Below, in pieces: positions 18,101-25,839 of a stretch of DNA of 64,000 nucleotides. The notes under the pieces are model-generated. The model had not been told where the DNA came from and did not search any database. It saw only the letters and a list, made by a program, of their open reading frames with translations. Origin of the DNA: Candidatus Latescibacterota bacterium (GTDB lineage: Bacteria > Latescibacterota > UBA2968 > UBA8231); NCBI GenBank assembly GCA_965248355.1, contig OZ252098.1:4864001-4928000 (forward strand), given 5' to 3'. How positions within the stretch are numbered: position 1 is the stretch's first letter; the number at the start of each line of letters is the position of its first letter. Both the position numbers and the translations under genes were made by a program.

Positions 18101-18156
18101 ACCGCGGGGTTCTCCGCGAGGTGGAGCTCGTTCCAGCCGGTGGTCTTGGGGGTCAT
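15139..18156 (-). CDS. hsdR: Type I restriction endonuclease subunit R
   Basis: PDVVAFVNGLPLAVIECK nuclease motif, WHTQGSGKS, VDEAHR, GFTGTP, MLLTGFDAP, LLQAIARVNR. Confidence 0.96.
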   Translation of the reverse strand: MTPKTTGWNELHLAENPAVELLQSLGYTYVPPEDLERERASFKEPILTSRLTQALKQLNPWLSGPNLTKAVRAVTHLQAASLAEANQTLYTSLTYGIALEQDRGEGRRSHTVRFLDFDEPDRNEWIVTRQYRVLGSKKHVIPDVVAFVNGLPLAVIECKSPTIGDAWKAEAVKQLHRYQEADSRWKDQGAPRLFEAAQILVGTCGERAVYGTVGTSERFFLEWKEPYPLGVKQLGQKLGRTPTPQDILLYGLLEPRNLLDIVRNFVVFEIEDGRAVRKLTRYKQFIAVNEAMRRIRTARKPSARGGIVWHTQGSGKSLTMLWLALKLRRDESQQQPAVVIVTDRTKLDRQISGVFTACGFPNPERADSVRGLRRILEHPTGRTVMTTIQKFQELTGPGGGPRRGQVHPTLSEAANIFVMVDEAHRTQYQSLAANMRQALPNACFLGFTGTPIDKKDRSTLRTFGSYIDTYTIEQAVQDKATVPIFYESRLAELQIIGQTIDQVFDRVFADRSEEKRAVIKRRFATEQAIAGAPRRIEAICLDLIEHFNQFIAPNGFKAQVVATSRHAAVSYKDALDRLNGPESALIMSAAHNDEERLTRWHLGKEEQDRVIERFKDHDDPLAMLVVCDMLLTGFDAPVEQVMYLDAPLKEHTLLQAIARVNRPHGDEKTYGLVVDYWGVSAKLQEALDIFSTTEIQGALTPSVDELPRLQSRHASAMRFFQSVADTNDLDACVRVLEPEDVRAEFDLAFRRFSQSMDMLLPDQRALTYHADLRWLGKIRGTARARYRDDRLDLSGCGEKVRQLIADAVVADGIEILVKEVQLFSPEFDEKVEALQSDDAKASEMEHAIRHEINVRVEENPAFYQSLRQRLEEIIEQRRLERLDDAQQLSLLNSLREELKGEQTQAQDIGLDGRGFAIYGLLQHHRPSRVAEATATYDVANRDLASLIDEAVAPYTDLVDWHQKEDVQRQMRSQIKRRLRASGIDPEATDSLAAEIVDLAKVRTER

Positions 18157-18178
18157 GCGGGTGGCAGTCTCGGTGTGC

Positions 18179-18340
18179 TCAATCGTTCAGACCAAGCGAC
18201 TTCTTCACCTCGGCAGCGGAGTATACCTGCTCCCCACCGTCTCGGACGCGCTGCAGGACTTCGGCAGCGAGATAGTAGTCCTCCATGTCATCAAGACCCC
18301 GTGCGATAGTCTCGCGCAGGCAGACATCCTTGGTGCGCCC
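18179..18340 (-). pseudogene. C-terminal remnant of a CopG/RelB-like antitoxin
   Basis: TGRTKDVCLRETIARGLDDMEDYYLAAEVLQRVRDGGEQVYSAAEVKKSLGL resembles RHH antitoxins lacking their first strand and helix; no toxin next to it. Confidence 0.6.
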
Positions 18341-18350
18341 GGTTTGCATT

Positions 18351-23440: not shown

Positions 23441-24427
23441 TCACTGCGTGATGTAGAAACTCCGTTGGAAACTCTCCCTGCTCTCGACCGCTATGCCGTA
23501 CTCCAGGGCCTTCTTTACCTTGCCGGTCGGCTTGGCGTCGGCGTCTGCGACGAGCAGTGTCGTGACCTTCTTGGAGATCCCGCTGGCAACCGTTCCCCCG
23601 GCGTTCGTAATCCTCGCCGCCAGCACTTCGTCCCGGAACCCGGTGAAGACGAACACCTGACCGCTGAGGTCTGCGTCATGCGCGACTTCTGCAGGCGCCG
23701 GGGCCTCGTCTGTCGGCTCCAATGGCGCGAGACTGATGCTGCCGCCGAGGAGCCCGCGAACCGCCCGATACACCCCCAGCGTCGCGTGGCAGTCCTCGAG
23801 CGCGCGGTGGCTGCCCTGGACAGGGACATCGAGCTCTTCGGCTACGGCCGCCAGCCCGTACGGCCCGCCTAGCGGCACTCGTCGCGCCATGCGCATGGTG
23901 CACACCCATTCGTTCTCGGCGAAGGTCATCCCCATGAGCCGGGCATTGTGCTCCAGAAACCTGCGGTCGAAGTGGGCATTGTGCGCGACGATCGGGGCAT
24001 CGTCGACGAAAGCGGCGACTCGCGGCAGCACTTCGTCTATGGTGTCCGCCTCCGCCACCATTTCGTTGGTGATGCCGGTCAGCTCACGAATCTGCTTGGG
24101 GATGTTTCCCGAGGGACGTACGGACTCGTTCAGCACCCGTTCGCGCGTAGATCCATTTTGGGTCTCGCTGCGGATGACCGCGATTTCGATGATCGCGTCA
24201 CGCTCCGGGTTCAGTCCGGTCGTCTCGATGTCAAGGACACAGAACGGAGACCCATCGTCGTCGGGCTCGTCCGGCTCGACGGGGCGCTCGACCATAGGGC
24301 GCCGCCGGCCGCGGGCGGTGAAGTCGGTTGAGTCATCGGTTCCGACATCCTGTATGCCGATGGTTCCGATGCCGGCCACAAAGCCAACCGCGAGCACCTG
24401 TCGCGCCTTGTCGGTGAGCGTCATCAT
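23441..24427 (-). CDS. DEDDh 3'-5' exonuclease (DnaQ-like) with C-terminal BRCT domain and hydrophobic N-terminus
   Basis: VLDIETTG, VAHNAHFD, HRALEDC; BRCT LSGQVFVFTGFRD...GGTVASGISKKVTTLL...KVKKALEYGI. Confidence 0.88.
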   Translation of the reverse strand: MMTLTDKARQVLAVGFVAGIGTIGIQDVGTDDSTDFTARGRRRPMVERPVEPDEPDDDGSPFCVLDIETTGLNPERDAIIEIAVIRSETQNGSTRERVLNESVRPSGNIPKQIRELTGITNEMVAEADTIDEVLPRVAAFVDDAPIVAHNAHFDRRFLEHNARLMGMTFAENEWVCTMRMARRVPLGGPYGLAAVAEELDVPVQGSHRALEDCHATLGVYRAVRGLLGGSISLAPLEPTDEAPAPAEVAHDADLSGQVFVFTGFRDEVLAARITNAGGTVASGISKKVTTLLVADADAKPTGKVKKALEYGIAVESRESFQRSFYITQ

Positions 24428-24504
24428 CGGTCCTGCACATGCAGCCTATGGCGCTGGGCGGGAAGTGTCGCCGCTGATTGGGTCAGCAGAACTCCCGGCG
24501 TAGG

Positions 24505-24577
24505 AGGCGAACTCGACGGCGGAGTTCTCTGCGTGGTGGAACTCGTCCCAGCCGGTTGCCTTTGGGGTCATGCGGGT
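24505..24577 (-). repeat. Decayed hsdR 5' end still overlapping the hsdS stop (original hsdS-hsdR junction)
   Basis: ATG at 24571 overlaps the hsdS TGA and reads MTPKATGWDEFHHAENSAVE versus hsdR MTPKTTGWNELHLAENPAVE. Confidence 0.9.
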
Positions 24578-25839
24578 TCGGGATCCGGGGTGACGCGAAG
24601 CTCGCCGGTGAGGAGGACGGACATGAGGGCGGACTTGATGATCGTGAGCTGGTCGACTCGGTTCTGTTCGGCTCCTACTCTGCGTTGTATCGAGTCCAAC
24701 ATCGATACTATTGTCGCCTGTTCCTCCACCGACGGCACGGGAATAACTGTCGCCAGCAGACTCCCCCGGCTGATGTTGACTTGGCTCACCCCAGGTGTTG
24801 CGGTGGAACGAAGCCTCTTCTGCATCGCCGGAGTATTGAGCAGGTAGGAAAGCCAATAGCCAGTTCCCAGTCTGGGTTTTACCCGAAGGCGCAGCAGATA
24901 CGACGCGAACGATACTCTCTCCTGGTGATCGAAAACCCCAACCTTTCCGACTAGTTCGGCACTGTTGGTTCGATTGAAGAGTACCTCACCGCTGGATAGT
25001 AGGAGTTCTTTGGGGATTCTTTCCACTGCTAGGTACTTCACATCATCCAAGCTTACCCTACCTTCCCGGAGATTGCCCATTCGCAATATGGGTATCCCGC
25101 TGTCGTTGCCTTGCAAGCTGTCCGACGTTCCGTAATCGCAACTGGCAATTTCGCCGATACTGCTGGTTCGCCATTCCTCCGGTATCTCTCCAATCTCCGT
25201 TTGCTTGAACCGCGTGTGCCGGTCCGGCAGGCCCCGCGTGAGCAGCTCTTCCATCAGGCCGCGCTTGACGACCTGCACTTGGTCGATGACCGCCTGGGTC
25301 TTCTCGATGGCGTCGTCCACCGAGGAGAGGATGGCGGCAATCTTGTGCTGCTCGGGAAGAGGCGGAAGCGGTATTCCGACGCGCGCGATGTCACCCACGC
25401 GTAAACCGAATCTTGTAATGCCATTCGCATACCTATGAAACTGCCGCTTGGCATTACTCGTGCGGAGAGCATAGCGCAGATATTCGCCGTCTAGTGCCGA
25501 TTTCAGGGGGCGCAGGATTGCGAGATGGTAGCCACAAATCACATCAGCTACTTGCTCGCGAACCACCGCAGGGACGCCGATATCATCAGGCGTCTCCGAA
25601 TCTTTGGTAATGATCACATCGCCCACCTGCAATCTGCAATTCCGTATTTCGCGTTCCGTGGCTGTCGCCTCCATGTATACCAAACCAGAGTGGAGGACGC
25701 TGTTGTTGTATACGTCAGAGTAGTTGCAAAGCCTGACTTTCTTTTCTCCGGGTGCAATCTTCTTGTCGACGCTGCTAAGGCGCAGGTCGACAATATCAGC
25801 CAAGGTAGCCGTAGGCCAACCTTCGTTAGGCAATGCCAA
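24568..25839 (-). CDS. hsdS: Type I restriction-modification specificity subunit S
   Basis: Two low-GC TRDs separated by the conserved IPLPPLPEQHKIAAILSSVDDAIE...GLMEELLTRG...FKQTEIGEIPEEW; ends KSALMSVLLTGELRV. Confidence 0.95.
   Translation of the reverse strand: MALPNEGWPTATLADIVDLRLSSVDKKIAPGEKKVRLCNYSDVYNNSVLHSGLVYMEATATEREIRNCRLQVGDVIITKDSETPDDIGVPAVVREQVADVICGYHLAILRPLKSALDGEYLRYALRTSNAKRQFHRYANGITRFGLRVGDIARVGIPLPPLPEQHKIAAILSSVDDAIEKTQAVIDQVQVVKRGLMEELLTRGLPDRHTRFKQTEIGEIPEEWRTSSIGEIASCDYGTSDSLQGNDSGIPILRMGNLREGRVSLDDVKYLAVERIPKELLLSSGEVLFNRTNSAELVGKVGVFDHQERVSFASYLLRLRVKPRLGTGYWLSYLLNTPAMQKRLRSTATPGVSQVNISRGSLLATVIPVPSVEEQATIVSMLDSIQRRVGAEQNRVDQLTIIKSALMSVLLTGELRVTPDPEPA

Follow-up and report, generated by a model that had tools for sequence, protein, structure and literature searches.

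The start of the restriction gene hsdR occurs three times in a type I restriction-modification (R-M) operon of a Candidatus Latescibacterota bacterium, and the two surplus copies are probably the marks of a recombinase-free insertion that left a long duplication, with later reuse of the scar through homology. The operon lies within a stretch of 64,000 nucleotides (nt), which we call the window (assembly GCA_965248355.1, contig OZ252098.1, positions 4,864,001 to 4,928,000 of the forward strand). On its minus strand, hsdM and hsdS are followed by 6.4 kb of cargo, after which come the intact hsdR and a YgjP-like gene; the cargo comprises a DEDDh-BRCT gene, antidote genes, a PHP-ATPase gene and an AlbA-HATPase gene. 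As judged from the linked, intact hsdM, hsdS and hsdR, the locus is a type I R-M system.

The two additional hsdR starts, here copies A and B, both lie on the minus strand upstream of the intact gene, which begins at 18156. Copy A is a dead hsdR head of about 20 codons (24513..24571), whose ATG at 24571 overlaps the stop codon of hsdS. Over 65 nt (24513-24577 against 18098-18162) it is 86% identical to the intact head, with an E-value of 6e-15 against the whole genome. Residues F11, H13 and S17 of copy A are found in none of the 41 full-length hsdR starts compared below, which argues that the copy is decaying. Copy B, about 45 nt long (23387..23430, with its ATG at 23430), is more decayed: it retains 80% identity over 46 nt (E 0.002 genome-wide), a score reached by none of 20,000 random 100-nt windows of the genome. 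Contigs of two other samples carry 4 extra letters inside copy B, at the position of a 5-nt gap in the window. An earlier note on this DNA, made without database searches, had listed the same three hsdR 5' ends and called B the weaker; both statements hold, and the short matches are significant at the scale of the genome.

The family to which this HsdR belongs offers many relatives for comparison. An HsdR match at E 1e-100 or better is present in 27 of 81 related genomes, and the close form of the protein (87-100%) in ten genomes, the window's own included. A scan of a genome collection yielded 73 loci, the closest titled Ca. Latescibacterota (91-93%) and the next closest belonging to Vicinamibacterales, Gammaproteobacteria and Spirochaetia (70-87%); a metagenome scan yielded 13 more, few of them close. 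The setting is probably that of sponge symbionts. The comparison set consists of 41 loci: the window plus 47 close loci, minus L070, L075, L078, L087, L088, L090 and L111, which have no head or hsdS (L094 and L102, which have no N-terminus, were excluded). In 19 of the 41 loci hsdS abuts hsdR, and the other 22 contain 0.6-6.4 kb of cargo. The cargo differs among loci and mostly consists of type II toxin-antitoxin (TA) genes—Phd-PIN, RHH-ParE, HI1420 antidotes and RelB—that are small and often decayed. A DEDDh-BRCT gene occupies the same junction in L053, L054, L057, L069, L073, L076 and L077, with 62-84% amino acid identity, and PHP-AlbA cargo is found in one other locus. In the HsdR tree (FastTree, several weak nodes), empty and filled loci are interleaved within the clade of the window. 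The hsdS-hsdR junction is a variable cargo site, where the extra genes between the core genes differ among relatives. This agrees with the earlier note, which had expected variable cargo at this exact junction and named identical, fixed cargo in all relatives as the contrary outcome. Two cargo regions hold mobile elements of their own: the DEDDh-BRCT gene of one locus is split by an ISAzo13-type transposase (L073:8210-9436), and another cargo contains a group II intron reverse transcriptase and an integrase fragment (L084:6626-8105).

An nhmmer profile of the head failed to detect copy B and the scar of L048; scars were therefore assessed by pairwise scores against 60 shuffles. In 14 of the 22 filled loci the hsdS stop bears a head scar that beats all 60 shuffles, and internal scars are found besides in L049, L053 and L055. 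The scars end at variable positions in the head, in classes of about +25-45, +62, +75 and +100-119. In L047 and L048, a junction of the B type lies directly at the hsdS stop, with no DEDDh-BRCT gene; the first cassette is therefore separable. The earlier note had proposed at least two insertions at one junction, each regenerating hsdR. The scars are indeed real and separable, but regeneration from the resident gene finds no support in their sequences: in none of the 14 scarred loci is the scar closest to the intact head of its own locus (ranks 2-30 of 41), and copy A matches the head of L050 at 54 of 60 nt, against 50 of 60 for the window's own head. Age and later exchange could mask a resident origin of both copies.

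Could a scar be retained because it encodes a short leader peptide, one that links translation of hsdS with that of the cargo? Copy A does open a 41-codon open reading frame (ORF) ending 18 nt before the DEDDh start. Against this stand the three residues of copy A that no intact head shares and the stops or frameshifts in the matching scars of L057, L076, L065 and L082, and we find the proposal scarcely credible.

An indication of what scars do comes from the loci L053 and L055, whose hsdR bodies are sisters in the tree (support 1.0). The internal scar of L053 and the end of the PIN gene upstream of it match the intact junction of L057 (84%), whereas the same elements of L055 match the intact junction of L077 (91%), a visibly different allele. 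At about +75, both loci pass into a common RHH-ParE cassette, 96-97% identical between them. Two different, once functional heads are thus joined to a single shared downstream cassette, which indicates homologous crossover inside the head. The simplest reading would be an exchange between the intact start of one locus and the scar of another, stacking two cargos.

The observations from which a route of entry can be outlined are the scars and their decay, the occurrence of both empty and filled alleles, the variation in breakpoints and the mosaic halves that switch inside the head. Incoming DNA likely consisted of cargo together with its own hsdR start, and would have been joined into a resident hsdR at a point 25-120 bases downstream of the ATG, leaving a dead head such as A or B. 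We infer that this first join was illegitimate and independent of a recombinase, of the class termed insertion with long target duplication. The scars would later serve as short homology arms, with host recombination likely stacking, swapping or removing cassettes between related loci; such moves would be crossovers of the RecA type between the intact head of one locus and the scar of another. Selection would act on the intact hsdS, the intact hsdR and perhaps the cargo, and not on the scar. Deletions cannot extend into hsdS, the stop codon of which shares bases with the ATG, and this may explain the survival of scars at that point.

No tyrosine or serine recombinase gene (PF00589, PF00239) is present in the window, in accordance with the earlier claim of a system devoid of integrase, nor is there a tRNA gene. 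The transposases that flank the operon (Mutator family at 12822-14093, DDE_3 at 45646-46692) lie outside the cargo. An integrase-borne or tRNA-anchored element was rejected on these grounds. A related possibility is a site-specific integrase acting in trans, or an integrative element since lost, with an attachment (att) site in the hsdR head and a replacement start supplied by the insert. Integrative elements routinely exchange the end of a gene for an att copy, three tyrosine and one serine recombinase matches exist elsewhere in the genome, and the integrase fragment in the cargo of L084 could be counted in its favor. That fragment is, however, the single match to an integrase family among the 78 cargo ORFs scanned against profiles (76 of 136 codon-score picks and two others), and the breakpoints spread from about +25 to +119 instead of sharing a fixed crossover point. 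Similar duplications are also present at the start of an antidote gene and at other R-M genes. We regard an integrase as a very unlikely agent.

Copies A and B separate the DEDDh-BRCT gene from the rest of the cargo, as the earlier note had it, but the second of its two cargo blocks is itself layered. Block 2 runs in the order dead antidote copy, inverted antidote ORF, intact antidote, RHH stub, TrlF-TrlG, cut relB and relE stub, with all features except the inverted ORF on the minus strand. The intact gene (22316..22642) encodes an HI1420-type addiction-module antidote with a helix-turn-helix fold, over the cut-offs of Pfam PF21716 and TIGR02684. Its dead 5' copy (23192..23294) is frameshifted and 85% identical over 103 nt, a second long duplication, located inside the cargo; long duplications therefore also strike the start of a TA gene. 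Between the two antidote copies lies the inverted HI1420-type antidote ORF (22877..23173, plus strand), recognized by its coding score and by a match to Pfam dnstrm_HI1420 below the cut-off. The 5' stub of an RHH antitoxin gene (22285..22319), 87% identical to the beginning of the RHH gene that is intact in L047, is in frame with the PHP-ATPase gene (19596..22274). The latter is TrlF-family and Ppl-like: it scores 493.9 bits with NCBIfam TrlF NF045780 (cut-off 350) and remains below the Ppl cut-off, with 174.6 bits against 1000 for NCBIfam NF042955. The AlbA_2-HATPase_c_4 gene that follows (18351..19595, Pfam) has TrlG architecture. The TrlF-TrlG pair sits in place of the end of the RHH gene and the start of relB, with no hsdR scar at its point of entry. 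Block 2 is a mosaic, put together by three or more further events. Most of the block recurs in the related genome G004 at 93%, and a trimmed form in L071 at 95%. In G004 (L145/L146, G004:C35), the block with TrlF-TrlG (93%) is found beside an hsdR cut at codon 41, in a locus without hsdS, an arrangement that we read as cargo outlasting its R-M system.

The DNA in front of the intact hsdR belongs to the same cargo. A relB antitoxin gene without its first 15 codons (18179..18347, minus strand; NCBIfam NF048017, RelB-like, over cut-off, profile positions 16-70 of 70) is full length in L134, L135 and L136. It is followed by a relE toxin stub in the reading frame of hsdR, 11 codons long and interrupted by a stop at codon 3 (18162..18195, minus strand); relE continues in L136, where it is frameshifted, and in L140, where it is intact (Pfam ParE_toxin). 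The earlier note had seen at this place a trace of the hsdS end. The 60 nt upstream of 18156 display no likeness to hsdS tails (p 0.59, 100 shuffles), and the peptide STPRLPPA* on which the trace was based is an off-frame reading of the relB-relE stub, so the trace was rejected; at most 5-6 nt preceding the hsdR ATG are possibly derived from hsdS. Among the 22 filled loci, weak hsdS-tail traces before hsdR are confined to L052, L053, L055 and L069 (p 0.01-0.03). In L144 the relE stub (window 18157-18195) forms an open frame in phase with hsdR, and in L137 and L138 it ends on the hsdR ATG; for this reason it may couple hsdR translation to relB.

The genome has two further type I loci with similar duplications, and an unrelated HsdR family shows them as well. 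In the second, distant locus (G000:C1:855974-869894), TA cargo is accompanied by a duplication of 275 nt plus 48 nt; its copies (860586-860904 and 866586-866957) cover a small gene and the hsdR head and flank an insert of 5.7 kb. The third locus (G000:C1:5227861-5231080) has the 3' end of hsdS duplicated around antitoxin genes (40 nt, 90%) and also a duplicated hsdM 3' end (99 nt, 88%). In the unrelated HsdR family, 31% identical over the N-terminus (L129:2052-13129), hsdM and hsdS are followed by five cargo ORFs, one of them Fic and four without a Pfam match, and by two scars of the hsdR head; their identities are 74% and 96%, and the scar closer to hsdR is the fresher. A genome-wide screen for gene starts duplicated upstream, made with a crude gene caller, reduced 661 repeat pairs to 35 rows, most of them paralogues or repeat proteins, with no flood of scars.

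Another explanation treats the scars as inert: tandem R-M loci or hsdS swaps, trimmed by deletion, would have left them at gene edges, where they survive with no role in later cassette traffic. Other gene pieces are duplicated too: hsdM 3' tails before hsdS and pieces of the hsdR 3' end and YgjP gene up- or downstream, in L047, L048, L049, L055, L064 and L111. Deletion derivatives are common (L048, L071, G004), and 8 of the 22 filled loci have no significant head scar, L055 being borderline and seven having none. Inert leftovers nevertheless fail to account for the two head alleles joined at one breakpoint to one cassette in L053 and L055, which require a crossover inside the head, or for the internal scars, which require serial events; we consider the explanation unlikely.

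Recombinase-free insertion with reuse of the scar has its own difficulties, beginning with the filled loci that lack a scar. The 14 scars amount to perhaps 4-5 origins, the loci being kin and some coming from one genome. No scar is identical to the intact head of its own locus, so that the first event is uncaught, and scar age has no single polarity: the hsdR-side scar is fresher in L053, L055 and L129, the hsdS-side scar in the window and L057. Homology arms of 45-75 nt with 80-90% identity would recombine rarely. Strong scars are limited to L129 among 30 other loci, mostly distant relatives, and occur in none of the 5 loci with a measured hsdS-hsdR gap exceeding 800 nt. Among the 15 joints shown of 93, which come from contigs and not from reads, none represents the window's own allele in an excised or empty state. 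The hsdR-head route is also not the sole one: TrlF-TrlG and the inverted antidote entered TA genes inside the stack, contrary to the entry of all cargo at the hsdS-hsdR junction that the earlier note had implied. A bolder possibility, to which we give less than even credence, is that the conserved junction of hsdS tail and hsdR head and its scars form a recombinase-free cassette array shared across phyla, each scar being a reusable homology arm. If so, stacks of TA and defence genes could be lengthened, shortened and reassorted by host recombination alone, between co-occurring members of the Latescibacterota, Acidobacteriota and Gammaproteobacteria, and the array would be the missing mechanism for the embedding of genes in type I R-M operons.

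The remaining genes of the operon lie on the minus strand, and hsdM, hsdS and hsdR are intact. The methyltransferase gene hsdM (25826..27670) encodes 614 amino acids (Pfam N6_Mtase and HsdM_N; PADLOC MTase_I), with an N-terminal extension of ~120 residues that matches a SAP domain, is common to close relatives and is missing from most distant ones. The specificity subunit HsdS (24568..25839, 423 amino acids) has two stretches matching Pfam Methylase_S. Cassette 1, the DEDDh exonuclease-BRCT gene (23441..24427, 328 amino acids), matches Pfam RNase_T and BRCT. The hsdR ORF (15139..18156) encodes 1005 amino acids with predicted restriction activity (Pfam HSDR_N and SWI2_SNF2; PADLOC REase_I). Coupled to its stop is a YgjP-like metallopeptidase gene (14411..15142, Pfam PF01863), conserved in the family and placed after hsdR in most of its loci. 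Upstream of hsdM (27726-33802), the window contains further defence-type genes: a KGGVGR-motif ATPase, an MqsA-like antitoxin with a small partner, a split GmrSD-like gene and a ParA-like ATPase. Short-read contigs of run X2, possibly the source sample, are identical to 17863-19883, 19869-22439 and 22411-23660, and contigs of X5, X8 and X9 match long parts with almost no difference; the layout is not an assembly error, as these matches attest. No contig among the pieces listed bridges copy A.

Integrons gather changing sets of cassettes, many of them TA genes, at one fixed place. The junction described here works like an integron, and differs in having neither a linked integrase nor a fixed crossover point; it is not a member of that class. 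Insertion with long target duplication, first described in 2000 as cited by Furuta et al. (2010, PMC2853133), is characterized in the available text of that paper by direct repeats of variable length above 30 bp flanking an insert that carries no mobility gene, with the empty site found elsewhere; the repeats often span a start or stop, the target stays intact, and R-M genes are among the targets. The window shares with this description the direct repeats of 65 nt and 46 nt, both >30 bp, the empty single-copy site in 19 of 41 loci and a 6.4-kb insert (<20 kb) without a mobility gene. It differs in that there an R-M system is inserted, whereas here the R-M operon is the target of TA, DEDDh-BRCT and TrlF-TrlG inserts, in the serial events, in the decay of the repeats to 80-86% and in their seeming reuse as crossover arms. 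The window works like this class without being a strict member, as its insert has no R and M genes, by which the cases of PMC2853133 were selected.

Many predictions of new defence systems start from genes lodged between hsdS and hsdR. DarTG2 occupies this place in PMC12255303, where the site is called a potential recombination hotspot, PrrC is embedded in EcoprrI (PMC12707154), and a guilt-by-embedding survey covers genes in type I R-M operons (bioRxiv, 10.1101/2024.01.29.577857). These systems share with the window's family the site, the mostly co-oriented cargo and the defence-type content; the available text of the three papers describes neither hsdR-head scars nor a mechanism of entry. 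The earlier note's view of the operon as an expandable defence-cassette platform without an integrase agrees with the variable cargo and the recombinase-free window, but the platform idea is already published (PMC12255303; 10.1101/2024.01.29.577857) and small TA genes of type II, often decayed, dominate the cargo of this family. A role of the cargo in defence against phage is putative, at the level of profile matches. The TrlF-TrlG pair resembles the TRL operon of Photorhabdus, for which the TrlG domains are described in 10.1101/2020.06.02.129163, in having a PHP-ATPase over the NCBIfam TrlF cut-off followed by an AlbA_2-HATPase_c_4 gene, a likeness at the level of genes; from Ppl it differs by its score under the cut-off. 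We found no description of hsdR-head scars in the literature searched, which leaves outside most subscription papers and supplements, and the supplements of PMC2853133 may list similar targets. Within the HsdR family, alleles are empty, filled once or filled several times, and one allele pair has its crossover inside the 75-nt hsdR head, which together make the homology-arm model testable; the allele switch inside the head is useful mechanistic evidence and the part most worth following. The component parts—type I R-M, TA genes and TrlF-TrlG—are already known, and the window is a clear new example of two published phenomena, hsdS-hsdR cargo and long target duplication, rather than a new kind of system.

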